Source of the DNA: an uncultured Thermomicrobiales bacterium
GTDB lineage: Bacteria > Chloroflexota > Chloroflexia > Thermomicrobiales > UBA6265
NCBI GenBank assembly: GCA_964244115.1
Contig: CAXTHM010000014.1
Span: 330 to 64,329 of the forward strand
Direction of reading: 5' to 3'
Length of the DNA: 64,000 nt
Position numbers and translations under genes: made by a program. The number at the start of each line of letters is the position of its first letter. Position 1 is the stretch's first letter. The notes beneath the pieces are model-generated. The model searched no databases. It saw nothing but the letters and a program-made list of their open reading frames with translations, and had not been told where the DNA came from. Below, piece after piece: positions 32,786 through 43,937 of the stretch.

Positions 32786-32980
32786 ATGAACCTTGTCGAT
32801 GGGTCGGAGTCGACGACGTCGAGGGGGGGGGTCGATGACCTCGTCGCGCGTGGCGTCCGGATCGAGCGGTACGGCGGGATGGACCAGGACGAGCGCGGCA
32901 TCGACCGCGGCGGCGGACCGCCGATCGCCTGGTTCACGGACCCCGCCGGGAACGTCCTGTCGGTGATCAGCGGGACCTGA
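32786..32980 (+). pseudogene. C-terminal fragment of a VOC/glyoxalase-family gene
   Basis: ...[16 protein letters not shown]......[15 protein letters not shown] is a typical last beta-alpha-beta-beta-beta module of a VOC domain. The frame opens only at 32777, so the N-terminal half is missing. Contains a G9 run at 32823-32831. Confidence 0.45.
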
Positions 32981-33281: not shown

Positions 33282-33459
33282 GGAGCGCTCGCTTCATGGA
33301 GTCCGTCCGGGAGAGAAGCGCAGTCCTGGAGGCGATCACCGCAACAGCACCGCCCGGCCCATCCGGCCCGTGGATACATCGACCGGCAGCCCCTATCATT
33401 GTCCGCACGCCTGTTCGCGTCGTTCCCACAGCCCCTCGCCCGAAGGAGACTGGCCCGCG

Positions 33460-34704
33460 ATGCCGCCCCCGGTCGCCTTCCTGCCCTCTACCGAATCGAT
33501 CGCCCCCGACCCCGCCGACCGTTACGCCCGGCAGCGGCTCCTGCCGTGGTGGGACCAGGACCGGCTGGCCGCGGCGCGGGTCGTCGTCGCTGGGGCCGGC
33601 GCCGTCGGTAACGAGGCGCTCAAGCTGCTCGCCCTCGTTGGTGTGGGCGAGATCGTCGTGGTCGATTTCGACACCGTCTCGCCCTCGAACCTGAGCCGGA
33701 CCGTCCTGTTCCGGGCCGAGGACGTCGGGCAGCCCAAGGCCGCGCTGGCCGCCCGCCGGACGAGGGAGATCAACCCGGAGGTCCACGTCGCCGCGATCGA
33801 CGGGGACATCGGCCGCGACCTCGGGCTGGCAACGCTGGCTGGGGCCGACGTCGTCCTCGGCGGGCTGGACAGCATCAACGCCCGCTGGTCGCTGAACCGG
33901 CGCTGCCTCCAGGCCGGCGTCCCCTGGATCAACGCCGGGATCACCGCCTCCGATGTCCAGGTCAGCCGGCACGTCCCCGGCGAGGGCGCCTGCTACGAGT
34001 GCACCTTCACCGAGGGGATGGCGCGGCGGTTCAACGCGCGCTCCTCCTGCACCGGGCTCGTCCGCCGGACGCCGGACCGGACGGTGCCGACGACCGCGAT
34101 CGGCGCCTCGGTCGTCGCCGGGCTGATGGTCCACGACGCGCTCCGCTTCCTGCACGACCCGGCCACCGGGCTCCGGGCCGGCCAGCGCCAGACCCTCCTG
34201 CTGGATGGCTATCGCCAGTTCCTCGACGATCTGCCCGTCGACCCGGACTGCCCGGCCCACACCGACCCGGTCCGCGACTGGACCACGACCGACCGTGACC
34301 CGGCCACGACCTCGGCCCGGGCACTGGCCAGTACCGCCGGGCTGTCGGAGGCGACCTGGCTGGAGTTGACGTTCGAGCTCGTTCTGGGCTTCTCCTGCCC
34401 CGCTTGCGGCGTGACGGAGGATGTCGGGCGACCGACCGCCGCCGTCTACGAGGAGGAGATCCTCTGCCCGACCTGCCGGCAGGAACGGATCGTCGCCCGT
34501 GGCACCCGTGTCCCGCTCGACGGCCCGCTCGCCGAACGGCCCCTGGCCAGCCTCGGCGTCCCGCCGCACGATCTGGTCGCTGTCGGAATCGGCGACCGGG
34601 CCGGAACATGGCTGGAGACGGGCGGGGAGTCACCGTGGCGAACCATCCCGGACCGACCGACACAGCACCGACCCGAAACCGTACCGACAGGAGCCCAGCG
34701 ATGA
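33460..34704 (+). CDS. ThiF/MoeB-family E1-like ubiquitin-like-protein activating enzyme
   Basis: RYARQRLLPWW, Rossmann VVVAGAGAVGNEALKLLALVGVGEIVVVDFDTVSPSNLSRTVLF, CYEC, SSCTG. C-terminal extra domain with CPACG...CPTCR. GAAGGAGA RBS before ATG 33460. The stop overlaps the next start (ATGA). Confidence 0.85.
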   Translation: MPPPVAFLPSTESIAPDPADRYARQRLLPWWDQDRLAAARVVVAGAGAVGNEALKLLALVGVGEIVVVDFDTVSPSNLSRTVLFRAEDVGQPKAALAARRTREINPEVHVAAIDGDIGRDLGLATLAGADVVLGGLDSINARWSLNRRCLQAGVPWINAGITASDVQVSRHVPGEGACYECTFTEGMARRFNARSSCTGLVRRTPDRTVPTTAIGASVVAGLMVHDALRFLHDPATGLRAGQRQTLLLDGYRQFLDDLPVDPDCPAHTDPVRDWTTTDRDPATTSARALASTAGLSEATWLELTFELVLGFSCPACGVTEDVGRPTAAVYEEEILCPTCRQERIVARGTRVPLDGPLAERPLASLGVPPHDLVAVGIGDRAGTWLETGGESPWRTIPDRPTQHRPETVPTGAQR

Positions 34705-35048
34705 CCGAGCCCATCCAGCAGCCCACCCCCGGCACCCCCAACGAGATGACGCTGAACATCCGGACCGCCAATCGGGACCGCAAGGCCGAGATCGCCGTCG
34801 ACCCGACCGTGACGGTCTCGGAGATCCTCGAAGCCGCCATGCAGAACTGGGCCCTGCCGACGGACTACGACTACGTCGTCCGCAGCGACCGCCTCGGGAC
34901 CCAGCTCCGCCCCTCGGCGACGCTGATCGGCAGCGGCGTCCGCGAGGGCGACATCCTCGAGATCCAGCCGATCGCCGACGCCGGCAGCTCGGCCGGTCGG
35001 CAGGTCCTGCTCTGGCTGGACCCGGTCGGAGCCTGCCCGTGGGCGTGA
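34701..35048 (+). CDS. small ubiquitin-like (beta-grasp-sized) protein, probable precursor
   Basis: 115 aa wedged between the E1 and E2 genes with overlapping stops and starts. The ~80-aa core ends ...GDILEIQPIADAG (Gly95), followed by a 20-aa tail. The fold is inferred from size, context and pattern, not proven. Confidence 0.65.
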   Translation: MTEPIQQPTPGTPNEMTLNIRTANRDRKAEIAVDPTVTVSEILEAAMQNWALPTDYDYVVRSDRLGTQLRPSATLIGSGVREGDILEIQPIADAGSSAGRQVLLWLDPVGACPWA

Positions 35049-35566
35049 TGATCCGCCGGCGGCAGGCCGACCTCGAACGGCTCCGCGAACTGGCGGCGGC
35101 CAACCCCGGCCGGATCGAGATCGTCGCCGTCGAGGGCGAGCCCCCGACGATGATCCGCTTCCGGCTCACCTGCCAGAGCATCACCGAGCTGTCCGCATCG
35201 GGCCAGCCCACCCTCGGCGGCAGCCACCTCCTCCGGGTCCACTTCGGCCAGCGCTACCCGCTGGAGCCGCCGCTGGTCTACGTCGAGTCGCCGATCGCCA
35301 ACCCGCACGTCTTCCCGACCACCCGGCGGATCTGCATCGGCGCCGCCTGGATCCCGTCGGAGACGCTCGACCTGTTCACCCAGCGCGTCTGGGCGATCCT
35401 GGCCTGGGACCCGCAGGTGATCGACCCCGGCAGCCCGGCCAACATGACCGCGCTGAAGTGGTCCGAGGACCACCGGGACCGCCTGCCGATCGAGCCGACC
35501 CGCCTCCGGAACGCCGGGACCCTCGTGCAGGTCGACGCCAAACCGCGCCTGAGCTGGCGGGGCTAG
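35048..35566 (+). CDS. E2-like ubiquitin-conjugating enzyme (UBC fold)
   Basis: LLRVHFGQRYPLEPPLVYVESPIANPHVFPTTRRICIGAAWIPSETL matches the YPxxPP...HPN...C...W.P block of E2s. Candidate catalytic Cys96 = 35333-35335. An alternative GTG start lies at 35045. Confidence 0.8.
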   Translation: MIRRRQADLERLRELAAANPGRIEIVAVEGEPPTMIRFRLTCQSITELSASGQPTLGGSHLLRVHFGQRYPLEPPLVYVESPIANPHVFPTTRRICIGAAWIPSETLDLFTQRVWAILAWDPQVIDPGSPANMTALKWSEDHRDRLPIEPTRLRNAGTLVQVDAKPRLSWRG

Positions 35567-35596
35567 ACGCGGACGGGCGGCTCGACGGACAACGAT

Positions 35597-35660
35597 CGTA
35601 GGGTCACGGGCTTGCCCTGACCGGTCGCCGCAGCGGCCATCGCCCCGCAGGGCGATAATT
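35597..35660 (-). repeat. family-A repeat inserted between the E2 and JAB genes
   Basis: CGTAGGGTCACGGGCTTGCCCTGACCGGTCGCCGCAGCGGCCATCGCCCCGCAGGGCGATAATT. Confidence 0.8.
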
Positions 35661-35694
35661 ATTGGCCGGGCGGCCAGAGGCGGAGGACAGGTCG

Positions 35695-36480
35695 ATGGTC
35701 GCGTGGAAGAGCACAACCGAGTTCAGCCCGGAGCCCCTCGACCTGGCTGCCTACGCCGCGGCCCATCACCTCGCCCTGCCGGAGACGGATAACGCGATCG
35801 GGCCGACCGACCCGGTCCTCGTCATCGACCACGCCGCCTGGGAGGCGCTCTGGGACCACGCCCGGTCGGCCGACGTCGAGGTCGGCGGGCTGCTGGTCGG
35901 CGAGGTCTTTCGGGATACGGCGACTGACCGACCGGTCACGATCGTCCGGGGCGCGATCCCGGCCATTGGCGGAGCGTCGTCCGCCGTCAGCTTCACCTTC
36001 ACGCCGGACGCGTGGGACCACCTCACCGCCGCGCGTGACCACTCGTGGCCGGAGCTGATCACCGTCGGCTGGTTCCACACCCACCCCAACCTCGGCGTCT
36101 TCTACTCTGGGACCGACCGCAACACGCAGCACGCCTTCTTCAACCGCCCCTGGAACGTCGGTATCGTCGTCGACCCGCTGGCGCTCTCGGATCAGGTCGG
36201 GCTGTTCGTCGGCGCCCACAGTCGCCGCATCCCGGCCTCGGACCTCGTCGTCGCACCGGAGCTGATTGCCGTCGCACGGCAGCCGGTCGCCGGTGCACGG
36301 GTGCCCGCCGCGCCGGTCCCGGAGCCGATCCGTCCCGTCCCGACGCCGATCCGCCCGACGATCCGCACCGTCTGGGACACCTACGGCTCGCGAGTCGCGG
36401 CGGCGGCGGCCGGAGCGGCAGTCGCCGTCGTGGCGGTGGCCGCGACCGAATGGGTCCGCTCGCAGCGCAGGGAACCGTAG
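35695..36480 (+). CDS. JAB/MPN+ (JAMM) metalloprotease with Pro-rich linker and hydrophobic C-terminal segment
   Basis: VEVGGLLVGE (Glu) and GWFHTHPNLGVFYSGTD, an exact HxHx7SxxD at 36076-36117. C-terminus: ...PVPEPIRPVPTPIRP...RVAAAAAGAAVAVVAVAATEWVRSQRREP. GGAGGA RBS before ATG 35695. Confidence 0.85.
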   Translation: MVAWKSTTEFSPEPLDLAAYAAAHHLALPETDNAIGPTDPVLVIDHAAWEALWDHARSADVEVGGLLVGEVFRDTATDRPVTIVRGAIPAIGGASSAVSFTFTPDAWDHLTAARDHSWPELITVGWFHTHPNLGVFYSGTDRNTQHAFFNRPWNVGIVVDPLALSDQVGLFVGAHSRRIPASDLVVAPELIAVARQPVAGARVPAAPVPEPIRPVPTPIRPTIRTVWDTYGSRVAAAAAGAAVAVVAVAATEWVRSQRREP

Positions 36481-37521
36481 ATGAGCGAGCGCGCCGAGCA
36501 GATCTCCTATCTGCAACGCCTGATCGACCGGATGACCGGCCGGTCGGCGGCGGCACACGAGGCGGCCAGTGAACCCGCCCATCTGCTCACGCCCGACCCG
36601 CGCGAGTCCCAGCAGCGCCACGGCGACCGGCCCCGGACACCCGGCTCCCGCCCACCATCCCGAACGCCGGCGTCAACGCCGAGAGCGCTGGAATCCCGCA
36701 CGCCGGAGCGCATGGCCCGGCCGACCCCGTCGACGATCTCGTGGGGCGGGGCGGCGGGTCCGTCCGTGCTCGACGACCCGCTCCACTTCATCGGCCAGAC
36801 AGACCCGCTCGAAGGGACCGCCCTGCTGGCCGGGGAGCAGGTCTCGGTCTGCACCCGCTGCGGCGCGGCCTATCACCTCGCGACGATGAGCTTCATCCGC
36901 GGCGCGACCGGCGGCGCCTGCGTCAGTTGCGGCACCGCCGGGCTGTTCCAGACCCTGACGCTGGAGGCCGGCGCCCAGACCATCGCCGCCCCGCCACCGC
37001 CGGTCATCACGATCCCGGTCGCGAACGAGCGCAAACCCATCCGTCCGACCCCTACCGCCGCGCCGCCCCGTGACGCCGCCGGCCGGCCGATCATCCAGCT
37101 CCATCAGGTCCGCGACCACATCGGCGAGGAGGTCGCCTTCGAGGGCCGCGTCCTCCGGGTCCATCTCACCGGCGGCGGGGCCTACTTCCTCTACTTCGAG
37201 CGGGCGGCCCGGGTGCTCGACGGCTTCCGGGCCGTGATCCGGCCGCGGGACATCTTCCACTGGGAGATCGAGGGGCTCGTCCCGCCCGACGCCTACCCGG
37301 ACCAGTGGGTCCGGATCGCGGGGCGGATCGTCGACGACCCGCGCTGGCAACTGGAGATCCTGATCCAGCGGCCGGAGTCGATCCAGATCCTCGACGGCCC
37401 GACCGAGTCGGCCGGCTGGCGCCCGGACGACGGGCTGATCCCGGACATCCCGGCCCCGCTGCTGTCCGACGCCCCGGCCATGAAGTCGGAACCAGCCGCC
37501 CGGGTCCGCTGGCTGGATTGA
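36481..37521 (+). CDS. Zn-ribbon plus OB-fold-like protein of unknown function (candidate adaptor/E3-like/target)
   Basis: The start abuts the JAB stop (TAGATG). Disordered P/R/S-rich N-terminal third. CTRCGAAYH...CVSCG (C124, C127, H132, C147, C150; 36850-36930). C-terminal pattern IIQLHQVRDHIGEEVAFEGRVLRVHLTGGGAYFLYFE...FRAVIRPRD...DQWVRIAGRIVDDPRWQLEILIQRPESIQIL is typical of OB-fold modules. Confidence 0.6.
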   Translation: MSERAEQISYLQRLIDRMTGRSAAAHEAASEPAHLLTPDPRESQQRHGDRPRTPGSRPPSRTPASTPRALESRTPERMARPTPSTISWGGAAGPSVLDDPLHFIGQTDPLEGTALLAGEQVSVCTRCGAAYHLATMSFIRGATGGACVSCGTAGLFQTLTLEAGAQTIAAPPPPVITIPVANERKPIRPTPTAAPPRDAAGRPIIQLHQVRDHIGEEVAFEGRVLRVHLTGGGAYFLYFERAARVLDGFRAVIRPRDIFHWEIEGLVPPDAYPDQWVRIAGRIVDDPRWQLEILIQRPESIQILDGPTESAGWRPDDGLIPDIPAPLLSDAPAMKSEPAARVRWLD

Positions 37522-37565
37522 CCCGAACTGCCGAACGGCGCCATCGTGACCAAGGGAGCCAGACG

Positions 37566-38354
37566 ATGCAACCGAAACCGGCGCACCTCGAAGCACGCTA
37601 CGGCGAGCAGTTCTCCGACCAGTCGGTCGTGGACGCCTACGGGCTCCGGCCGCCCTACCCCGATGGCGTCATCGACCTACTCGCCGACCTCGCCGGTCCG
37701 ACGGGGGCCGTGCTCGACCTCGGCTGCGGGACCGGCGAGATCACCCGCCGCCTCGCCGGGCGCGTCGGCCGGATCGACGCGGTCGACCCGTCGGCGGCGA
37801 TGCTTGTCAGGGCCCGGTCGTTGCCTGGCGGGGACCAAGCGAACCTGTCCTGGATCCACGGAGCGGCCGAAGATGCTCCGTTCGACCCGCCGTACGACCT
37901 CGTCTGCGCCGCCGCCGCGCTCCACTGGATGGACTGGGCGGTCGTCCTGCCCAGAATCCGGGCGGCGCTGACCCCGTCCGGTCCGCTGGCGATCGTTGGG
38001 GACGGCGTGGCTACCGTCCCCTGGGCCGCCGACGCGCAGGTCGTGATCGATCGATATTCGACCAACCGGGATTACCGTCCCTACAATCTGCAAGCAGAAC
38101 TCGAGCAGCGCGGACTCTTCCGCGAGACCGGCCGCTACCGCTCCGAGCCGGTCCCGTTCGACCAGACGATATATGATTACGTCAACAGCTATCACGCTCG
38201 CAATGGCTTCTCCCGCGACCGGATGGACCCGGCCAAAGCCGACGCCTTCGACCGCGAGCTGACCGCCATCGTCGCCTCACACGTCACCGGCGATACCGTC
38301 CGGCTCATGGTCTTCGGCGCCATCGTCTGGGGCATCCCCGGACCCGCCGATTGA
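37566..38354 (+). CDS. class I SAM-dependent methyltransferase
   Basis: Motif I VLDLGCGTGEITRRLA, motif II RIDAVDPSAAML, post-II DLVCAAAALHWMDW. AAGGGAG RBS. Confidence 0.8.
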   Translation: MQPKPAHLEARYGEQFSDQSVVDAYGLRPPYPDGVIDLLADLAGPTGAVLDLGCGTGEITRRLAGRVGRIDAVDPSAAMLVRARSLPGGDQANLSWIHGAAEDAPFDPPYDLVCAAAALHWMDWAVVLPRIRAALTPSGPLAIVGDGVATVPWAADAQVVIDRYSTNRDYRPYNLQAELEQRGLFRETGRYRSEPVPFDQTIYDYVNSYHARNGFSRDRMDPAKADAFDRELTAIVASHVTGDTVRLMVFGAIVWGIPGPAD

Positions 38355-38450
38355 TCTCCCCTACCCCACAGACATCCCTTCGCCAGGCGCCCCTTTCCAT
38401 CGCATCACCCCGACGGCGGCCCGGCTAGTGGCCCCGTCACAGGAGCGCAG

Positions 38451-40508
38451 ATGAGCGACGACCCCACCGATCCCCAGGACGACAGCGCGACCGGCGCCGA
38501 GCCGGAACTGTCCAACAACGACGGCGGCATCGGCCGTCCGCCACCCCGAACCCCGCGCCCGCCCCGCCTCGACGAGCGTCGCGGCGGCCTACGCGGACCC
38601 AATGGCCGGATCATCCCGCCGGGCGGCTCCGGGCCGGGCCGGAATGGCCCCCCGGTCCCGACCGTCCGCTTCCTCACCGGGCAGGGTCAGGCCGACGGCG
38701 ACCGGACCGAGCGCGAGGGCGACGAGCCCGACGAGCCGACCAGCACGACGCCGCTGCTCGATGCGGCGGGCCGCGACCTGACCGCCCTGGCCCGAGCCGG
38801 CGAGCTACCGGACATCGTCGGCCGCGACCCCCAGATCCTCCAGCTCGCCCAGACGCTGCTCCGCCATGACCGCCCCGCGCCGCTCCTGATCGGCGAGTCC
38901 GGCATCGGGCGGACGGCGATCGTCGAGGGGCTCGCCGTCCGGGCCGTCGCCGAGGGGGCCGACCCGCGGCTGGCGAAGCTCCGGATCGTCCAGCTCTCGC
39001 TCGACCAGATGGGCGGCGACGCGATGATCCGTCCCCGGATGGCGAACCGCTTCGGCGCCGTTCTGGAAGAGGTCGTCGCCCACCCGGATACGGTCCTGTT
39101 CATCGACGGGCTGCACCTGCTGCTCGGCGGGACCCCGATCGAGATCGTCCCGGCCGACGTGCTGCGCGGCTTCCTCAACCAGCACGCCGGCCAGATGATC
39201 GGCACGACGACGCCGAAGATCGCCGAGGCGATGCTGAGCCCGCAGCGCGAGCTCGCCCCGTCGCTGATGCCGATCACCGTCGGCGAGCTCTCGGAAGAGG
39301 ATGCCCGGACGCTACTGACCCGGCAGGCCGGTGCCTACGCCGCCCACCATGACGTCGAGATCGGTCCGGACGCGATCGAGGCCGCCCTCGCCCTCAGCAT
39401 CCGCTACGTCTCCCAGGGCTGGTTGCCGCGCAAGGCCAGCGAGCTGCTCGACATCGCCGCCAGCCAGCGCAGCCTGCCCCTGCTGACCGGCCGGGCGAAC
39501 GGCGAGCGTCCCGTCGTGACGCCGGAGGCGATCGCCGCCGCACTCCACGCCCGCTGGGGGATCACCGCCCCGAGCTGGGACGCCGCCCAGGAGCACAGTG
39601 AGCCGACCCCGCTGGCCGCGCCGGCGGACCTCGCCGAGCGGCTGGCCGAACGCATCCTCGGGCAGCCCGAGGCGATCGGCGCCATGACCGACGCCGTCCG
39701 CGTCGCCGCCCTCGGGCTCCGCACGACCGACCGGCCCCGGGCCGTGATGCTGTTCGGCGGCCCGACCGGCGTCGGCAAGACGGCCCTCGCCCGGAACCTG
39801 GCCTCGGCCCTGTTCGGCTCCGAAGAGGCGCTGCTCCGGATCGACATGAGCGAGTTCCAGCAGCAGCACGTCATCGCCCGGCTACTCGGGGCGCCCCCCG
39901 GCTTCGTCGGCTACAACGACGGCGGCCAGCTCTCCCGCTTCCTCCGCGCCCACCCGGAGAGCGTCATCCTGCTCGATGAGATCGAGAAGGCCCACCCGCA
40001 GGCGCTCGACATCTTCCTCCAGCTCTTCGACGCCGGCCGGATCACCGATGGCCACGGCCAGATCCTCGACGCCCGCCACGCCGTCTTCATCATGACGACC
40101 AACCTCCCGATGAGCGACAACCACGTCACCCTCCGGGCTCGGCTGCGACCGGAGTTCCTCAACCGGATCGACCGGATCGTCCAGTTCCGGGCCCTGGAAC
40201 TGGAGGACCTCGAGCGGATCGCGTTGATGCGGCTGGAGACGCTGACCGCCCAGCTCCGCGCCCGGCAGATCATCCTGCGGGTCACGCCGGACGCCCTGAC
40301 CGCCCTGGCCCGGCCGGAGTCCGACGGGCGGGCTGCCAACGGTCGCACGGTCGAGCGCCGGCTGGACCAGGAGGTGGCCGGGCGGGTCGCCGAGTGGGCC
40401 GCGCTGCTGACCGGGATGGCGCCGGGCCAGCCGGTCGTCCTGACGCTGGAGGCCACCGCGACCGGCACCCGCGTCAGCCCGCCGGGGATGCTCGACGTCA
40501 ACGCCTGA
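38451..40508 (+). CDS. ClpA/ClpB-family double-ring AAA+ ATPase with degenerate D1 and no Clp_N domain
   Basis: D1: LIGESGIGRTAIVEGLA (Walker A Lys replaced by Arg) and VLFIDGLHLLLG (Walker B DE replaced by DG). D2 is canonical: LFGGPTGVGKTALA, VILLDEIEKAHPQALDIFLQLFDAGRITDG, LLGAPPGFVGY, PEFLNRID. The first ~100 aa are G/P/R-rich. No coiled-coil M-domain and no IGF/IGL-type loop seen. Confidence 0.8.
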   Translation: MSDDPTDPQDDSATGAEPELSNNDGGIGRPPPRTPRPPRLDERRGGLRGPNGRIIPPGGSGPGRNGPPVPTVRFLTGQGQADGDRTEREGDEPDEPTSTTPLLDAAGRDLTALARAGELPDIVGRDPQILQLAQTLLRHDRPAPLLIGESGIGRTAIVEGLAVRAVAEGADPRLAKLRIVQLSLDQMGGDAMIRPRMANRFGAVLEEVVAHPDTVLFIDGLHLLLGGTPIEIVPADVLRGFLNQHAGQMIGTTTPKIAEAMLSPQRELAPSLMPITVGELSEEDARTLLTRQAGAYAAHHDVEIGPDAIEAALALSIRYVSQGWLPRKASELLDIAASQRSLPLLTGRANGERPVVTPEAIAAALHARWGITAPSWDAAQEHSEPTPLAAPADLAERLAERILGQPEAIGAMTDAVRVAALGLRTTDRPRAVMLFGGPTGVGKTALARNLASALFGSEEALLRIDMSEFQQQHVIARLLGAPPGFVGYNDGGQLSRFLRAHPESVILLDEIEKAHPQALDIFLQLFDAGRITDGHGQILDARHAVFIMTTNLPMSDNHVTLRARLRPEFLNRIDRIVQFRALELEDLERIALMRLETLTAQLRARQIILRVTPDALTALARPESDGRAANGRTVERRLDQEVAGRVAEWAALLTGMAPGQPVVLTLEATATGTRVSPPGMLDVNA

Positions 40509-40528
40509 GCCGACCCGTTGACGAACCA

Positions 40529-40562
40529 CCAGACGGCGCGACCCCGGGGTCGCGCCGTCTGG
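40529..40562 (+). terminator. perfect 34-nt palindromic hairpin after the AAA+ gene
   Basis: CCAGACGGCGCGACCCCGGGGTCGCGCCGTCTGG, 20 nt after the stop. No clear U-tract. Confidence 0.55.
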
Positions 40563-41238: not shown

Positions 41239-42513
41239 ATGATTACCCAGCACTACCCCCCAGCGGCTCCCGAGAGCACGCCGGACCCACGGATCTTCAG
41301 CAGCGAGGGACAGGCGTTCCTCGTCGGCGACACCATCTTCCTGCGCGGCATCGAGGACGAGGACGCCGTCCGCGCCAGCGCCTGGCGCGACTCTCCCTAC
41401 CCGATCAACGCCGAGCGGGCTGGCGAAATCATCAAGGAGATGACCGAGAAGCCCAAGCCCGGCAGCCGCTTCCTCGTCGCCTGCCGCCGCAGCGACGGCG
41501 AGCCGGTCGGCTCGCTGTCCCTGTCCCGCTGGCCAGGCAACGACCTCGACATCCCGGTGGACCTCTACGCCAACCCGGCCCTCCCCGACCGCGAGGCGAT
41601 CCGGGCCGAGATGCTGAAGCTGTTCATCGCGTGGGGCGCCAGCGAGGGCGAGCTCCCGGTGGTCTACATCGAGTTCGCCGACTCGCAGACCGAGCTCCGG
41701 GCGATGGCCGAGTCCCTCGGGATGCGCCACGCGGCCCTGTGGCGCGAGCAGCGCTGGCTCGACGGCGCCTGGCGGGACAAGCTCGCCTACGCCTGGCATA
41801 ACCCGGCCTGGATCCCGCGGCTCGGCGAGCCCGGCGTCGGGATCGACTTCGCCCTGCCCGTTGACGACGCCTCCCGCTGGCGCCCGCGGCAGTTCCCGAC
41901 CTACGGCACGCTCGGTGGCGACCCGCCGACCAATGCCGTCATGGTCGGCCCGCGCGTCTACCTGCGGCCGATCGAGATGGAGGACGCCCCGGTGATCGTC
42001 GCCGGCCAGCGCCGCGAGACCGAGACCTTCTTCGATGATGGCCGCCTGCCGGGGAGCGTCGCCCGGATGCGCCAGCACACCCGCGACCTGGTGAAGGACG
42101 ACATCCAGGAGTGGGTCCGGTTCGCCGTCTGCCTGCGAGAGACCGGCGAGATCATCGGCACCAACGGGATCGACTCCGTCGACCTGATCAACCGGACCGC
42201 CGAGACGGAGACGTTCTTCCACAACGCCGCCTACCGGGGCGGCGGCTACGGCTCGGAAGCCAAGCAGCTCCTGCTTGCCTACGCCTTCGAGCGCCTCGGG
42301 CTGCACTCCGTCTACAGCTGGGTCTGGGGGCCGAATACCCGCTCCGCCGCCGCGCTGCGCAAGCAGGGCTACCGCGAGTGCGGCCGCGTCTTCTGGGCCG
42401 GGACCAAGAACGGCGAGTACACCCACGCCTACACCTTCGACTTCCTCGCCGAGGAGTGGCGCGAGATGACGGCCCGGGCGGCCACTGCCGAGTCGATGGC
42501 GGTCGCCCGATAA
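41239..42513 (+). CDS. double-GNAT (RimJ/RimL-like) N-acetyltransferase, paralog 1
   Basis: Two acetyltransferase halves. The second carries the acetyl-CoA motif AYRGGGYGSEAKQLLLAYAFERLGLHSV...NTRSAAALRKQGYRECG. 424 aa from ATG 41239. Confidence 0.75.
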   Translation: MITQHYPPAAPESTPDPRIFSSEGQAFLVGDTIFLRGIEDEDAVRASAWRDSPYPINAERAGEIIKEMTEKPKPGSRFLVACRRSDGEPVGSLSLSRWPGNDLDIPVDLYANPALPDREAIRAEMLKLFIAWGASEGELPVVYIEFADSQTELRAMAESLGMRHAALWREQRWLDGAWRDKLAYAWHNPAWIPRLGEPGVGIDFALPVDDASRWRPRQFPTYGTLGGDPPTNAVMVGPRVYLRPIEMEDAPVIVAGQRRETETFFDDGRLPGSVARMRQHTRDLVKDDIQEWVRFAVCLRETGEIIGTNGIDSVDLINRTAETETFFHNAAYRGGGYGSEAKQLLLAYAFERLGLHSVYSWVWGPNTRSAAALRKQGYRECGRVFWAGTKNGEYTHAYTFDFLAEEWREMTARAATAESMAVAR

Positions 42514-42671: not shown

Positions 42672-43937
42672 ATGACCACCCAGACGTATCCGCCCCCGGT
42701 CGTCGAGGGCACGCCCGACCCACGGATCTTCAGCGGCGAGGGACAGGCGTTCCTCGTCGGTGAGACGATCTTCCTGCGTGGGCTGGAAGAGGAGGACGCC
42801 GTCCGCGCCAGCGCCTGGCACGACTCGCCCTACCCGATCAACGCCGAGCGGGCCAGCAAGATCATCAGGGAGCTGACCGAGAAGCCCAGGCCGGGCAACC
42901 GCTTCCTCGTCGCCTGCCGCCGCAGCGATGGCGAACCCGTCGGTTCCCTCGCCCTGCGGCGCTGGGCCGGCAATGAGCCCGACAATCGCCTGGGACTCTG
43001 GGCCGACCCGGCCCGGCCGGAGAGCGAGCGGATCAGGGCCGAGATGCTCGGGCTGATGGTGGGATGGGGCTTCGGCGAGGCCGAACTGCCGAAGATCGTG
43101 CTCGAGTTCGATGACGGTCAGGCGCCGCTGCGGGGACGGGCCGAGGCACTCGGGATGCGCCGCGCCGCCCTGTGGCGGGACGGCGTCTGGCGCGACGGGC
43201 AGTGGCGCGACCGCGTGCTGTACGAAGGGTTGCACCCGGCCTGGCTCCGGCGCCTCGGCGACCCCGGCCGCGGGATCGACCACGCGATAGGCGTGGACGA
43301 CCCGATCCGCTGGCGCCCACGACAGTTCCCGACGTACGGCACCGTCGACGGCGACCCGCCGATCAACGCCGTCATGGTCGGCCCACGGGTCTACCTCCGG
43401 CCGATCGAGATGCGGGACGCGGCTCCATCGGTCGCGATGGAGCGTCGCGAACCCGAGACGTTCATGGACAACGGGCGCTTCCCCTGGTCCGCCGCCGGGG
43501 CACGGCAGTTCGTGCGGGACAACGCGAAATCCGACCCGCCCGGGTGGGTCCAGTTCGCCGTCTGCCTGCGGGAGGACGGCCGGCACATTGGGACCAACGG
43601 GATCTGCGCCATCGACCGGCTCAACCTGACGGCCGAGACGGAGTCCTGGTTCCATGACCCGGCCTACCGCAATAAGGGCTACGGCTCCGAGGCCAAGCAA
43701 CTCCTGCTCGCCTACGCCTTCGAGCGCCTCGGTCTCCACTCCGTCCACAGCCATGTCTGGGGACCCAACACGCGCTCGGCCGCGGCGCTCCGCAAGCAGG
43801 GCTACCGCGAGTGCGGCCGGCTGGTCTGGCAAGGGACGAAGCACGGCGAGTACACCCACGCCTACCTGTTCGACTTCCTCGCCGACGAGTGGCGCGAGAT
43901 GACCGCCCGGGCCAGCGCCGCGGCTGGGAACGCGTAG
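42672..43937 (+). CDS. double-GNAT (RimJ/RimL-like) N-acetyltransferase, paralog 2
   Basis: Alignable end to end with 41239..42513. Identical runs include NAVMVGPRVYLRPIEM, GYGSEAKQLLLAYAFERLGLHSV and WGPNTRSAAALRKQGYRECGR. Confidence 0.75.
   Translation: MTTQTYPPPVVEGTPDPRIFSGEGQAFLVGETIFLRGLEEEDAVRASAWHDSPYPINAERASKIIRELTEKPRPGNRFLVACRRSDGEPVGSLALRRWAGNEPDNRLGLWADPARPESERIRAEMLGLMVGWGFGEAELPKIVLEFDDGQAPLRGRAEALGMRRAALWRDGVWRDGQWRDRVLYEGLHPAWLRRLGDPGRGIDHAIGVDDPIRWRPRQFPTYGTVDGDPPINAVMVGPRVYLRPIEMRDAAPSVAMERREPETFMDNGRFPWSAAGARQFVRDNAKSDPPGWVQFAVCLREDGRHIGTNGICAIDRLNLTAETESWFHDPAYRNKGYGSEAKQLLLAYAFERLGLHSVHSHVWGPNTRSAAALRKQGYRECGRLVWQGTKHGEYTHAYLFDFLADEWREMTARASAAAGNA

Follow-up and report, generated by a model that had tools for sequence, protein, structure and literature searches.

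A chromosomal ubiquitin-like conjugation operon of eukaryote/archaeal type, followed by a Clp-derived AAA+ gene, in a Thermomicrobiales bacterium

Ubiquitin-like (Ubl) conjugation systems of several kinds are known. In CBASS, an E1-E2 fusion conjugates a CD-NTase, and in the lid and base of the 26S proteasome Rpn11 lies above the Rpt AAA+ ring. Bacterial neighbourhoods combining Ub, E1, E2, RING and JAB genes were reportedly predicted in 2011 by Burroughs, Iyer and Aravind, whose work is said to be the source of the Pfam family Prok-RING_1 and to include bacterial RING-like proteins with TM helices. We know of no AAA+, J-domain or OB association, and of no terminal phi-x-W motif, described for neighbourhoods of this type. 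[quoted passage not shown] The Bil-type E2 is without the classical histidine (Iyer 2006, class 6d, PMC1779556).

Here we examine a 64,000-nt stretch of DNA from an uncultured Thermomicrobiales bacterium (the window), in which a first-pass annotation had described an E1-Ubl-E2-JAB cassette extended by three further genes. The locus is a chromosomal, complete ubiquitin-like conjugation operon of eukaryote/archaeal type. HMM, profile and structure tests support the cassette of E1, pro-Ubl, UBC-type E2 and JAMM protein, and a domain search returned the families that had been predicted (ThiF, UQ_con, Prok-JAB, YukD-type beta-grasp, Methyltransf_25 and AAA_2). The features are as follows.

33371..33399, plus strand: sigma-70-like promoter candidate (TGGATA-17-TATCAT), ~60 nt upstream of E1, consensus match only
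33460..34704, plus strand: E1, 414 aa, single ThiF/MoeB-type adenylation domain (Pfam ThiF 6e-54)
34701..35048, plus strand: pro-Ubl, 115 aa, beta-grasp (Pfam YukD 7e-5)
35039..35566, plus strand: UBC-type E2, 175 aa (GTG 35039) or 172 aa (ATG 35048) (UQ_con 1e-5)
35695..36480, plus strand: Rpn11-like JAMM/JAB metallopeptidase, 261 aa (Prok-JAB 3.5e-7, JAB 1.6e-6)
36481..37521, plus strand: Zn-finger/OB protein, 346 aa (AF2 model, Foldseek, Prok-RING_1 matches)
36763-36966, plus strand: mononuclear RING-like Zn domain of that protein, aa ~95-162 (C124xxC127..YH132..C147xxC150)
37063-37410, plus strand: OB fold of that protein, aa ~195-310 (AF2/Foldseek)
37566..38354, plus strand: class I SAM-dependent methyltransferase (MTase), 262 aa (Methyltransf_25 4e-18)
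38451..40508, plus strand: Clp/Hsp100-derived double-ring AAA+, 685 aa (AAA_2 9e-45 and AAA_lid_9)
40529..40562, no strand: perfect 34-nt GC-rich palindrome, 21 nt past the AAA+ stop codon

The seven same-strand genes reported for 33460-40508 are borne out by the positions of the open reading frames, which are those listed (35048-35566 for the E2 when counted from its ATG), and public gene calls are identical for four boundaries (E1, 414 aa; Ubl, 115 aa; Zn/OB, 346 aa; AAA+, 685 aa). The sequence features of the first-pass annotation are present where it placed them, with trivial corrections only. Three junctions without spacer can be read from the letters (ATGA, 34701-34704; TGATG, 35046-35050; TAG/ATG, 36478-36483). 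The second is spelled as described, but the E2 probably starts at GTG 35039, because all E2 homologues begin MGV-, and would then overlap the 3' end of the Ubl gene by 10 nt. The RBS-like AAGGGAG and AGGAG lie 8 nt 5' of the MTase ATG and 5 nt 5' of the AAA+ ATG, respectively; the gap between the Zn/OB and MTase genes is 44 nt and not 45. The 128-nt E2-JAB spacer contains a small hairpin and an AT-rich island (35640-35662), neither of which is conserved in relatives. Two sigma-70-like sites occur in the 8.5-kb region, against 0.2 expected. The palindrome at 40529-40562 is indeed perfect over 34 nt, with folding at -51.5 kcal/mol over the surrounding 92 nt, and is likely to be a transcription stop without a T-tract; lacking a T run, it was missed by a consensus terminator scan. 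A terminator search across the operon found none before 40529. We can only infer a single seven-gene transcription unit, because relatives without the MTase gene have a spacer of 186-293 nt before the AAA+ gene. This spacer holds a conserved -10-like GATACT, which could be the AAA+ gene's own promoter.

Alignment of the E1 family reveals an invariant Zn site (C178xxC181 with C264xxH), an invariant C-terminal Zn ribbon (C313, C336xxC339) and an invariant Cys197 in the crossover loop, which is a candidate catalytic cysteine. The best PDB matches of the family profile are the active adenylation domains of UBA7, UBA1, UBA6 and SAE2 (4e-46), with MoeB at 5e-34. By these comparisons the E1 is of eukaryote/archaeal type, with a single adenylation domain closest to eukaryotic UBA1/UBA7. 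For the pro-Ubl, the HMM match to YukD (7e-5) and the structure comparison agree with the beta-grasp fold that had been proposed. Its AF2 model, made from a single sequence (pLDDT 67), has the topology bb-a-bb-(a)-b, and each of the top 50 Foldseek matches in the PDB is either a ubiquitin-fold domain (ubiquitin, SUMO, NEDD8 or another) or a designed variant of ubiquitin; single-domain targets give TM values of 0.70-0.78. An invariant Ala94-Gly95 closes the beta-grasp core (Gly codon, 34983-34985), and beyond it lies a presumably removable 20-aa tail with an LLWLD motif; distant orthologues stop exactly at ...AG-COOH. Gly95 is the predicted conjugating residue.

The E2 scores 25.6 bits with UQ_con (E 1e-5), for which the gathering threshold is 27; PF00179 is precomputed for nearly all of its homologues, and the family profile matches eukaryotic UBE2A/B, UBE2L3 and UBC9 at 6e-15. 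The UQ_con and family-profile matches both support the UBC fold suggested earlier. Its motifs are YPLEPPLV, NPH (a variant of HPN), Cys96 and a C-terminal KPRLSWRG; the cysteine is confirmed at 35333-35335 and is invariant in 40 diverse sequences. The HxHx7SxxD motif of the JAB (H128/H130) is likewise present at 36076-36117, and the protein has an N-terminal MVAWKS motif, E62 and H128xH130x7S138xxD141, the JAMM motif being invariant in an alignment of 10 orthologues. In the PDB the JAB is matched best by PSMD14/Rpn11 (4.7e-10), followed by the Rpn11-like protein of Caldiarchaeum (1.4e-5). A hydrophobic C-terminal tail, VAAAAAGAAVAVVAVAATE, with a 19-residue Kyte-Doolittle mean of 1.9, may serve as a membrane anchor.

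The product of the fifth gene begins with an N-terminal helix (aa 2-19) and a disordered linker, followed by the Zn domain, a linker, the OB fold and a C-terminal RVRWLD motif. Its identity as a Zn-finger and OB-fold protein is supported by the structure model, in which pLDDT is about 80 over the Zn domain and about 90 over the OB fold, by a Foldseek match (6.5e-6) between this OB fold and the anticodon-binding OB of class IIb aaRS, and by Prok-RING_1 matches of 8 of 11 Zn domains, all sub-threshold (best 3.8e-5; 21.9 bits against a threshold of 29.1). The Zn domain has one Zn site and not two, which counts against RING identity. Distant subfamilies also have orthologues of this protein (L010, L011 and L014, tblastn 2e-27 to 7e-21; also L095). 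A Zn-finger protein was found in every subfamily examined, OB-fused in three, the fusion recurring in two other subfamilies, and is the fifth conserved component of the family.

A short phi-x-W-x-(D/E/G) motif is found at the termini of the E2, JAB and Zn-finger proteins and in the pro-Ubl tail. It is present in 10/10 JAB N-termini, 35/40 E2 tails and 16/17 Zn/OB C-termini, against a rate of 2.6-4.0% in 780 background ORFs. These peptides would probably dock their proteins on the same partner, which would be the Ubl or the E1. The comparable island in the N-terminal tail of the AAA+ has F in place of W and is only four residues long. In locus L095, the gene of an HPD J-domain protein lies directly 5' of the E1 gene and overlaps the E1 start; the protein begins MKWTNL where the local JAB begins MKWNEL, i.e., with the common motif, and hints at an independent parallel to the AAA+ link in a different subfamily.

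The bacterial E2 family comprises 924 clusters (E<=1e-3) and is found in Cyanobacteria, Burkholderiales and other phyla. The gene order E1-Ubl-E2 is present in 10/10 fetched loci reaching that far, the JAB gene is next in every locus reaching it, and the order E1-Ubl-E2-JAB is kept across unrelated genomic contexts. The family is thus large, widespread, bacterial and experimentally uncharacterised, with an invariant core of E1-Ubl-E2-JAB and a RING-like Zn-finger protein. The E1-first order, the membrane-tethered JAB and the Zn-finger protein had been regarded as oddities of this locus; they are the norm of a large family. Conservation of the three downstream genes beside the core, a further point raised earlier, holds for the Zn/OB gene, holds for the AAA+ gene within the lineage only and fails for the MTase gene. 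The MTase gene occurs in the window, L015 and L002/3/7/16, but the close relatives L005, L001 and L004 are without it, so that the MTase does not belong to the core of the system; it is an optional, dispensable passenger.

The AAA+ shares the two-ring D1-D2 layout of ClpC, ClpA and ClpB. Its N-terminal tail is disordered, with 95 aa and conserved islands including VRFL (aa 72-75, nt 38664-38675). D1 has the Walker A GESGIGRT (38892-38915), the Walker B FIDGLH (39099-39116) and the pore loop MIRPRM, and has lost its Arg fingers; residue-level alignment with ClpC gives the changes K->R, E->G and Y->I, respectively. This degeneracy is kept in five orthologues, which, with the ClpC alignment, upholds the earlier call of a ClpA/B/C-like AAA+ with a dead D1. 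D1 is a conserved pseudo-ATPase and D2 is intact: it shares about 50-60% identity with the D2 of ClpC over the aligned block and keeps the Walker A and B motifs (GPTGVGKT, LLDEIEKA) and the GFVGY pore loop. Comparison with ClpC found no Clp_N domain and no M-domain, and a 31-residue ClpC segment, which we take to carry the ClpP-docking loop, is replaced by 7 residues; the AAA+ is accordingly predicted to be without this loop. Scores with the NCBIfam ClpB/ClpA/ClpV models (340-383 bits) are far under the cut-offs of 885-1232.

On balance, we favour the view that the Thermomicrobiales locus is a vertically inherited Ubl operon, with a dedicated AAA+ that is proposed to handle Ubl-conjugates and with the MTase as a passenger. 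The Rpn11-like JAB would strip the 20-residue tail of the pro-Ubl and expose Gly95; this step is suggested because orthologues elsewhere end at AG and because archaeal Rpn11 and BubCD do likewise. Gly95 would be adenylated by the E1 and then form a thioester, probably on Cys197, before transfer to Cys96 of the E2. The Zn-finger/OB protein may be an E3-like adaptor whose RING-like domain engages E2~Ubl while the OB fold selects the target, and the mark would be reversed at the membrane by the tail-anchored JAB. In Thermomicrobiales, the operon would have acquired the Clp-derived AAA+, in which only the D2 ring would hydrolyse ATP and ClpP could not dock. We propose that the disordered N-terminal tail, with its VRFL island, recognises Ubl-conjugates, which the AAA+ then unfolds or extracts.

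It is also possible, if somewhat doubtful, that the functional unit is the five-gene Ubl system only, with the MTase and the AAA+, a chaperone paralogue with its own promoter, as unrelated neighbours by lineage synteny. Neither gene adjoins the core in L008-L014, L094 or L095, and the AAA+ is absent from all non-Thermomicrobiales loci of the E2 family (0/8). The three relatives lacking the MTase have the long GATACT-containing spacer, and in Thermomicrobiales synteny is as strong for the flanking PBP2 and GNAT genes as for the AAA+; therefore, adjacency of the AAA+ alone cannot separate function from inheritance. However, the AAA+ is no housekeeping Clp, having a dead D1 and neither N-domain, M-domain nor ClpP loop. 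Its orthologues, confined to Thermomicrobiales, lie directly after the cassette in 7/7 distinct contigs; none was found away from it, and the next-closest relatives are ordinary Clp genes, <=40% identical, with no Ubl genes nearby. The gene is on the same strand as the cassette with a conserved RBS and no terminator until 40529, it is the most conserved of the block (91/76/72/70% identity), and elsewhere in the family the common motif ties a J-domain chaperone cofactor to the system of another subfamily. Coupling of tagging and unfolding is thus plausible, not proven, because the AAA+ travels with the cassette in only one Thermomicrobiales clade, where the flanks are equally conserved.

Bil-like anti-phage defence, in which the Ubl is attached to phage structural proteins and the AAA+ is an added effector, is in our view unlikely. 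The set of E1, E2, Ubl and JAB parallels Bil, other bacterial Ubl operons are defensive (PMC11601596, PMC10557695), and one family member, L095, has a type I R-M system on one side and an AAA_15/AAA_21 ATPase on the other. However, PADLOC gave only generic E1-E2 and JAB domain matches and a partial BilD match (25.7 bits); the Ubl matched nothing, and the E2 matched no Bil model. The composition is not Bil-like: the E1 is single-domain and nearest UBA1/UBA7, the E2 has an HPN-type motif, and PADLOC found no BilA, BilB or BilC. The locus stays in stable synteny between housekeeping genes even among species that share only about 60% identity in PBP2, the L010/L011/L014 group is likewise stably syntenic, and tblastn against 72,556 plasmids and 50,697 phage records found no E2 homologue. 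Because of this stable synteny, housekeeping quality control is tentatively favoured over phage defence as the biological role. The locus is thus none of the named systems Bil, Bub and CBASS. A ThiS/MoaD-type sulfur-carrier or cofactor pathway in place of protein conjugation is highly improbable. The E1 does score with ThiF, MoeB and UbaA models, but the ThiF/MoeB scores are all far under the NCBIfam cut-offs and the E1 is nearer to eukaryotic adenylation domains; such a pathway has no role for a UBC-type Cys E2, an Rpn11-like isopeptidase or a RING-like protein, and the domain search found no sulfurtransferase or cofactor-synthesis gene in the block.

Among described systems, that of Caldiarchaeum has in common with the window an E1 with a single adenylation domain, a UQ_con-type E2 with a catalytic Cys, a single beta-grasp modifier made as a precursor whose C-terminal peptide is to be removed, an Rpn11-like JAMM peptidase and a small Zn-finger partner, all operon-encoded. 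The window system differs in being bacterial, in a Ubl with a terminal AG in place of GG and a sequence like that of YukD and not of ubiquitin, in a Zn domain with a single Zn site, which resembles RING only below threshold and in this family is joined to an OB fold or TM helices, and in its putatively tail-anchored JAB, E1-first order, common phi-x-W terminal motif and, in Thermomicrobiales, added AAA+. The neighbourhoods of Burroughs and coworkers reportedly have the same parts list, and the Zn domains here are repeatedly Prok-RING_1-like, although none reaches the Pfam gathering score. Bil (BilABCD) is also a four-part system of Ubl, E2, JAB and E1 with Ubl-to-lysine conjugation and a JAB that likely processes and recycles the Ubl; in contrast, the present locus has a single-domain E1 with a crossover-loop Cys, an E2 family with HPN or NPH, another gene order, no PADLOC Bil call and a position outside a defence island. 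Bub (6E/DUF6527) and Type II CBASS Cap2/Cap3 share E1/E2-like chemistry and a peptidase exposing a C-terminal Gly, whereas the oxyester chemistry and DUF6527 serine protease of the former and the E1-E2 fusion and CD-NTase of the latter are absent from the window system. Ub-Cdc48, the 26S lid and base and Pup-Mpa work by the logic of tagging with a small protein, unfolding by a dedicated AAA+ and removal of the tag by a peptidase; the likeness is one of analogy only, with a JAB most similar to Rpn11. Unlike Cdc48, Rpt and Mpa, the AAA+ is Clp/Hsp100-derived and its coupling putative; no peptidase chamber partner is evident, and PafA, Dop and Pup are absent. If true, the pairing of this AAA+ with an Rpn11-like JAB would follow Ub/Cdc48 or proteasome lid/base logic, and a Clp-type ATPase behind a tagging operon would allow a link of tagging to unfolding to be tested in bacteria.

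Seven open reading frames on the forward strand fill positions 33460-40508 of the window, where G+C content is about 70% throughout. The genes and two associated sequence elements are as follows.

33460-34704, + strand, E1 (414 aa)
34701-35048, + strand, ubiquitin-like protein, Ubl (115 aa)
35048-35566 (or from 35039), + strand, E2
35640-35662, E2-JAB spacer island: small GC hairpin CGCCC-CGCA-GGGCG, then AT-rich ATAATTATT, in a region of 72% G+C
35695-36480, + strand, JAB
36481-37521, + strand, Zn-finger/OB protein, Zn/OB (346 aa)
37566-38354, + strand, methyltransferase, MTase
38451-40508, + strand, AAA+ protein (685 aa)
40529-40562, perfect 34-nt palindrome

The boundaries of the E1, Ubl, Zn/OB and AAA+ genes coincide exactly with public gene calls. 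The layout described in the first-pass annotation can be read directly in the DNA: the three junctions (ATGA at 34701-34704, TGATG at 35046-35050 and TAG/ATG at 36478-36483), two RBS-like strings, the palindrome, and the positions of the JAB motif HxHx7SxxD (36076-36117), E2 Cys96 (35333) and Ubl Gly95 (34983-34985). Two details needed correction. The gap between the Zn/OB and MTase genes is 44 nt, not 45 nt, and the start of the E2 is probably GTG 35039 and not the TGATG junction, given that every homologue opens with MGV-. About 60 nt upstream of E1 there is a sigma-70-like site. The hairpin and AT-rich element of the E2-JAB spacer, which is about 80 nt longer than that of the closest relative, are missing in relatives; they could act as a weak attenuator or internal promoter element. 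A scan for consensus terminators called none, the palindrome having been missed because it has no T-tract, and an Rfam search of the whole window gave no match. Upstream, the region between PBP2 and E1 is variable: in the window it holds a 64-aa ORF (32786-32980) that looks like what is left of the C-terminus of a glyoxalase/VOC-family protein, and in relatives other small genes (SnoaL_2, Fic). Downstream of the palindrome are two tandem paralogous double-GNAT (Acetyltransf_3) genes, 41239-42513 and 42672-43937, which share 70% identity and keep their place in relatives. Outside Thermomicrobiales, the L010/L014 subfamily likewise has a weak GNAT-like protein encoded by one of its accessory genes, which may be a coincidence.

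The identities of the four core proteins are well supported. The E1 has a single ThiF domain (aa 32-260; Pfam, 6e-54), and a profile built from seven family members matched the active adenylation domains of UBA7, UBA1, UBA6 and SAE2 in the PDB at 4e-46 to 1e-35, ahead of MoeB (5e-34) and ThiF (1e-30). Invariant in the family alignment are C178xxC181 with C264xxH, the crossover-loop Cys197 and a C-terminal Zn ribbon. The Ubl gave a weak YukD match, and its AF2 model, made from single-sequence input, has the bb-a-bb-b topology of a beta-grasp; the top 50 Foldseek matches in the PDB were all ubiquitin, SUMO, NEDD8, other ubiquitin-fold domains or designed ubiquitin variants (TM 0.70-0.78 for single-domain targets). 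The proposal that 34701-35048 encodes a beta-grasp protein is thus borne out by structure prediction. Ala94-Gly95 is invariant, the terminus being AG and not GG, and distant orthologues end exactly at ...AG (L008, 7690-7998; L009, 7747-7995; L012, 7731-7982). Among the loci examined, tails elsewhere are 1 to 7 residues long and a 20-residue tail occurs in Thermomicrobiales only. The ending at AG in distant orthologues marks Gly95 as the predicted conjugating residue and the window Ubl, in which Gly95 and the tail take up 34983-35048, as a putative precursor.

The E2 falls 1.4 bits short of the Pfam threshold for UQ_con (25.6 against 27 bits), and PF00179 is assigned to nearly all of its homologues. 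A profile of 40 sequences matched the eukaryotic UBE2A/B, UBE2L3 and UBC9 at 6e-15, and Cys96 is invariant in that alignment. Where the family has HPN, the window clade has NPH, in both cases nine residues ahead of the Cys; the window has NPH at 35300-35308, against canonical H-P-N in Microcystis, Lautropia, L012, L094 and L095. In the Thermomicrobiales E2, the His and Asn appear to have exchanged positions. Many E2s of the family carry a fused C-terminal CxxC...CPxC zinc ribbon after a W motif described below (for example, family sequences P0043, P0047, P0050, P0051, P0054 and P0058, and L009 8001-8600, L012 8001-8642 and L095 9001-9609); the accessory protein's RING-like Zn domain is a different element. 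The best PDB match of the JAB was proteasomal Rpn11/PSMD14 (4.7e-10), with Caldiarchaeum Rpn11-like protein (1.4e-5) and CSN5 also found, and the JAMM site E...HxH...S..D is intact in all 10 orthologues.

A fifth protein belongs with these four. The AF2 model of Zn/OB, from a 17-sequence alignment, consists of an N-terminal helix, a four-Cys Zn domain (pLDDT ~80) and an OB fold (pLDDT ~90) joined by disordered Pro-rich linkers; in Foldseek the OB fold matched the anticodon-binding OB of AspRS, AsnRS and LysRS at 6.5e-6. The Zn pattern D-x-L-x-G-x(6-9)-V-x-x-C-x-x-C-G-x-x-Y-H-x(13-15)-C-x-x-C was found in every subfamily examined. It shares a polypeptide with an OB fold in L010, L011 and L014 (tblastn, 2e-27 to 7e-21), forms part of a TM-Zn-OB protein in L095, and lies behind TM helices in L008, L009, L012 and L094. 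This distribution argues that Zn/OB is integral to the core. The four Cys with the conserved Tyr-His would make up one Zn site, against the two of a binuclear cross-brace RING. Eight of 11 Zn domains matched Prok-RING_1 (PF14446), all below the gathering threshold of 29.1 bits (best E value, 3.8e-5; best full-length protein, 21.9 bits in L014; window domain, 18.9 bits) and over profile positions 12-44 of 54 only. As the matches are sub-threshold and partial, we describe the domain as RING-like and regard it as a candidate E3, and not as a member of Prok-RING_1. A PDB profile search with the Zn domain returned only spurious matches to summed C2H2 repeats. Hydrophobic segments, C-terminal or internal, are present in the JAB of three subfamilies, and elsewhere a TM helix sits in the Zn protein; hence, the system appears to be membrane-associated.

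The remaining two genes differ in their distribution. Close homologues of the E2 and Zn/OB form only 16-17 clusters, in which all named members are Thermomicrobiales, and a GTDB genome scan with the E2 alignment, a pattern scan that reaches close relatives only, found three species, all Thermomicrobiales MAGs. In L005 (OZ244596.1), the closest complete relative, also a Thermomicrobiales MAG, the cassette lies on a secondary replicon, 'chromosome 2' (2.4 Mb). Seven distinct contigs of the clade share the order PBP2 - (variable small genes) - E1 - Ubl - E2 - JAB - Zn/OB - [MTase] - AAA+ - GNAT. The MTase is a class I SAM methyltransferase of generic type. L015 and L002/3/7/16 have it, as does the window, and L005, L001 and L004 lack it; its proposed membership of the cassette did not hold, and it is best read as a passenger. 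Its C-terminus, AIVWG (ITFG in L002), was considered as a copy of the terminal motif described below and set aside, since it resembles the last strand of the fold. The AAA+ gene, in contrast to the MTase, is found in every clade contig that reaches far enough and shows the highest conservation in the block (the L005 copy is 91% identical). However, the flanks are equally syntenic, and the adjacency therefore reflects vertical inheritance and provides no independent evidence of linkage. In the loci without the MTase, 186-293 nt precede the AAA+ gene and contain a conserved GATACT (L005 12329-12513, L001 12348-12610, L004 12318-12609), possibly the -10 element of a separate AAA+ promoter; the RBS CAGGAGC before AAA+ is invariant in all loci. 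A metagenome scan with the D1 (first-ring) alignment, which also matches ordinary Clp genes and served as a negative control only, returned generic Clp at 77 of 79 loci, with at most 40% identity and no Ubl genes nearby.

The wider family is large. When the E2 profile was searched exhaustively with HMMER, it gave 924 clusters, 305 of them at 1e-10, with named members in cyanobacteria (Microcystis, Nodularia, Calothrix, Rivularia), Sericytochromatia, Burkholderiaceae and Lautropia. We sampled eight loci with different genomic contexts (L008-L014, L094, L095). The order E1-Ubl-E2 is kept in all seven whose contig covers the region upstream of E2, and JAB follows E2 in all eight; neither an AAA+ protein of the window kind nor the MTase was found in these eight loci. 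The cyanobacterial operons end with a conserved protein of about 200 aa that has no Pfam match (L008 11030-11632, L094 11157-11783). The claim that the AAA+ gene travels with the core thus stands within Thermomicrobiales contigs and fails in the wider-family loci examined, and the association is a lineage-specific variant.

The AAA+ protein is a relative of ClpA/B/C, with AAA_lid_9 in D1 and AAA_2 plus ClpB_D2-small in the second ring, D2; an alignment to ClpC spans both rings. It shares two Clp-type AAA+ modules with ClpA, ClpB and ClpC, but its scores with the NCBIfam ClpB/ClpA/ClpV models (383, 358 and 341 bits) are far short of the equivalog cut-offs (1232, 993 and 885), a domain search found no Clp_N, and it lacks a catalytic D1 and the M-domain or ClpP loop. 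Residue-level alignment to ClpC shows that in D1 the Walker A Lys is Arg (GESGIGRT), Walker B DE is DG, the pore loop KYR is MIR (MIRPRM) and the Arg-finger pair RR is PS. About 50 residues stand at the M-domain position, and seven residues replace ClpC 662-692, the segment which we take to carry the ClpP-docking loop. The N-terminus consists of 95 disordered residues with conserved islands (ELSNNDGG, PPRxPR, LPPG, VRFL), and D2 is fully canonical. The D1 degeneracy, the missing parts and the state of D2 are kept in the four orthologues examined, in agreement with the dead D1 ring noticed in the first-pass annotation. A dead D1, a canonical D2 and the seven-residue replacement, all conserved, point to a single-motor predicted unfoldase that would not dock ClpP in the known way.

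A second line of evidence comes from a short peptide, phi-x-W-x-(D/E/G/N), at the termini of the E2, JAB, Zn-finger and other accessory proteins and in the pro-Ubl tail. At the E2 C-terminus (window 35551-35566), Trp170 is nearly invariant in 40 sequences; 35 of the 40 tails match the motif, and two have Phe for Trp. The extreme N-terminus of JAB (35695-35712) carries it in 10 of 10 sequences from five subfamilies, and Zn/OB at its C-terminus (37501-37521) in 16 of 17 and at its N-terminus in L010 and L014. It appears as LLWLD in the Thermomicrobiales pro-Ubl tail (35004-35021), where the AF2 model places, with low confidence, a beta-strand at residues 102-108, and twice at the C-terminus of the ~200-aa cyanobacterial protein. 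The background frequency is 2.6-4.0% of the termini of 780 ORFs. The peptide may be a common docking peptide for Ubl or E1. In the AAA+ protein, the N-terminal island (V/I)RFL (38664-38675) resembles the Zn/OB C-terminus (V/I)RWL. In L095 (6578-10160, JGI Ga0609866_0002576), two genes stand ahead of E1-Ubl-E2-JAB, one for the TM-Zn-OB protein and one for a J-domain protein of 81 aa with HPD. The first residues of this J-domain protein are MKWTNL and those of the local JAB are MKWNEL; both carry the motif. Judged by this motif, the J-domain protein would link an ATP-dependent chaperone system to the Ubl family a second time, independently of the AAA+ protein, and no other observation gives the AAA+ link as much indirect support. 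Functional coupling of AAA+ and Ubl in Thermomicrobiales is therefore plausible and, on adjacency, specialised anatomy and motif resemblance, somewhat favoured in our judgement. Should the AAA+ gene prove to be no more than adjacent, the locus would remain a clear representative of an uncharacterised E2/Ubl family.

A broader reading, which we advance tentatively and think rather unlikely as a whole, is that Thermomicrobiales have a self-contained bacterial counterpart of ubiquitin-dependent unfolding, with a family-wide code of terminal peptides by which effectors plug in. Proteins near the membrane would be tagged by a cascade of eukaryote-type E1, E2 and RING-like protein; the single-motor Clp-derived AAA+, whose disordered N-terminus contains a phi-x-(W/F) peptide, would use this peptide to bind the tag and would then unfold the substrate or extract it; and the Rpn11-like JAB would strip the tag. 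The terminal peptide would recruit interchangeable effectors: AAA+ here, a J-domain/Hsp70 partner elsewhere and other proteins in cyanobacteria. A role in defence may apply to parts of the family, given that L095 has a type I R-M system on one side and an AAA_15/AAA_21 ATPase on the other. In the window lineage, stable synteny between housekeeping genes, the lack of E2 homologues in plasmid and phage collections and the absence of a PADLOC call argue against a typical mobile defence island. To our knowledge, the characterised bacterial systems Bil, Bub and CBASS include no unfoldase. The locus bears on a standing question, that of how prokaryotic ubiquitin-type tagging is read out: a compact set of six or seven genes places a eukaryote-like E1/E2/Rpn11-like cascade before a dedicated, simplified AAA+, a link open to biochemistry or cryo-EM. 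It also offers handles on a large unexamined bacterial Ubl branch, namely the 924 E2 clusters, the fifth RING-like component, membrane anchoring, the shared terminal docking peptide and J-domain recruitment in another subfamily. For the archaeal Rpn11 system, the authors of one study state that neither the choice of substrates nor a possible link from tagging to degradation is known (PMC6043591).

Comparison with named systems places the cassette outside each of them. Bil needs an E1 with tandem domains and an E2 that lacks the histidine (PMC11601596, PMC1779556): BilD has inactive and active adenylation domains in tandem and a mobile Cys domain, and BilB is an E2 of the 6d type without the classical HPN histidine, whereas the window E1 has one ThiF domain with a crossover-loop Cys197 and the E2 keeps NPH (HPN in the family). 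The PADLOC BilD match to the E1 covers only about 100 residues (25.7 bits), PADLOC BilB does not match the E2, and neither BilA nor BilC was recognised, PADLOC having no family for the Ubl and matching the JAB with generic CBASS-type JAB models only (E ~1e-4). In Bub (6E/DUF6527), the E1 and E2 are without catalytic cysteines, the chemistry is oxyester and a DUF6527 serine protease is present; invariant Cys96 and Cys197, and the absence of a DUF6527 match in any of the seven proteins, rule out membership. Type II CBASS has Cap2, an E1-E2 fusion, beside a CD-NTase (with Cap3); here E1 and E2 are separate genes, the PADLOC E1-E2 matches cover the adenylation domain only, and no CD-NTase occurs in the gene block. 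Neither Pup, a PafA/Dop ligase-deamidase nor Mpa with its coiled-coil/OB N-domain was matched among the seven proteins, and PADLOC and NCBIfam assigned the block to no named defence system and no equivalog.

The Caldiarchaeum-type operon, in contrast, shares with the window family a UQ_con-type E2 with catalytic Cys and HPN-like motif, an Rpn11-like JAMM protein with intact site, and a ubiquitin-fold modifier whose C-terminal Gly is exposed by processing, here by prediction and with an AG end. Bacterial counterparts were reportedly described by Burroughs et al. in 2011. The archaeal Ub/E1/E2/RING/Rpn11 operon (PMC5654768, PMC6043591) and its bacterial counterparts, of which one of these papers mentions 'some examples of complete operons' (PMC5654768), are the closest known systems; a 2015 survey recorded no complete bacterial toolkit (PMC4327156). 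Our literature searches found no bacterial operon of Ubl plus unfoldase, no account of this E2 family and no AAA+ link to such an operon. The reading of the locus as a ubiquitin-like cassette therefore stands for the core and Zn/OB, falls for the MTase and applies to the AAA+ gene as a feature of one lineage; the core itself is a well-defined new case of the ubiquitin-like conjugation operons already known.
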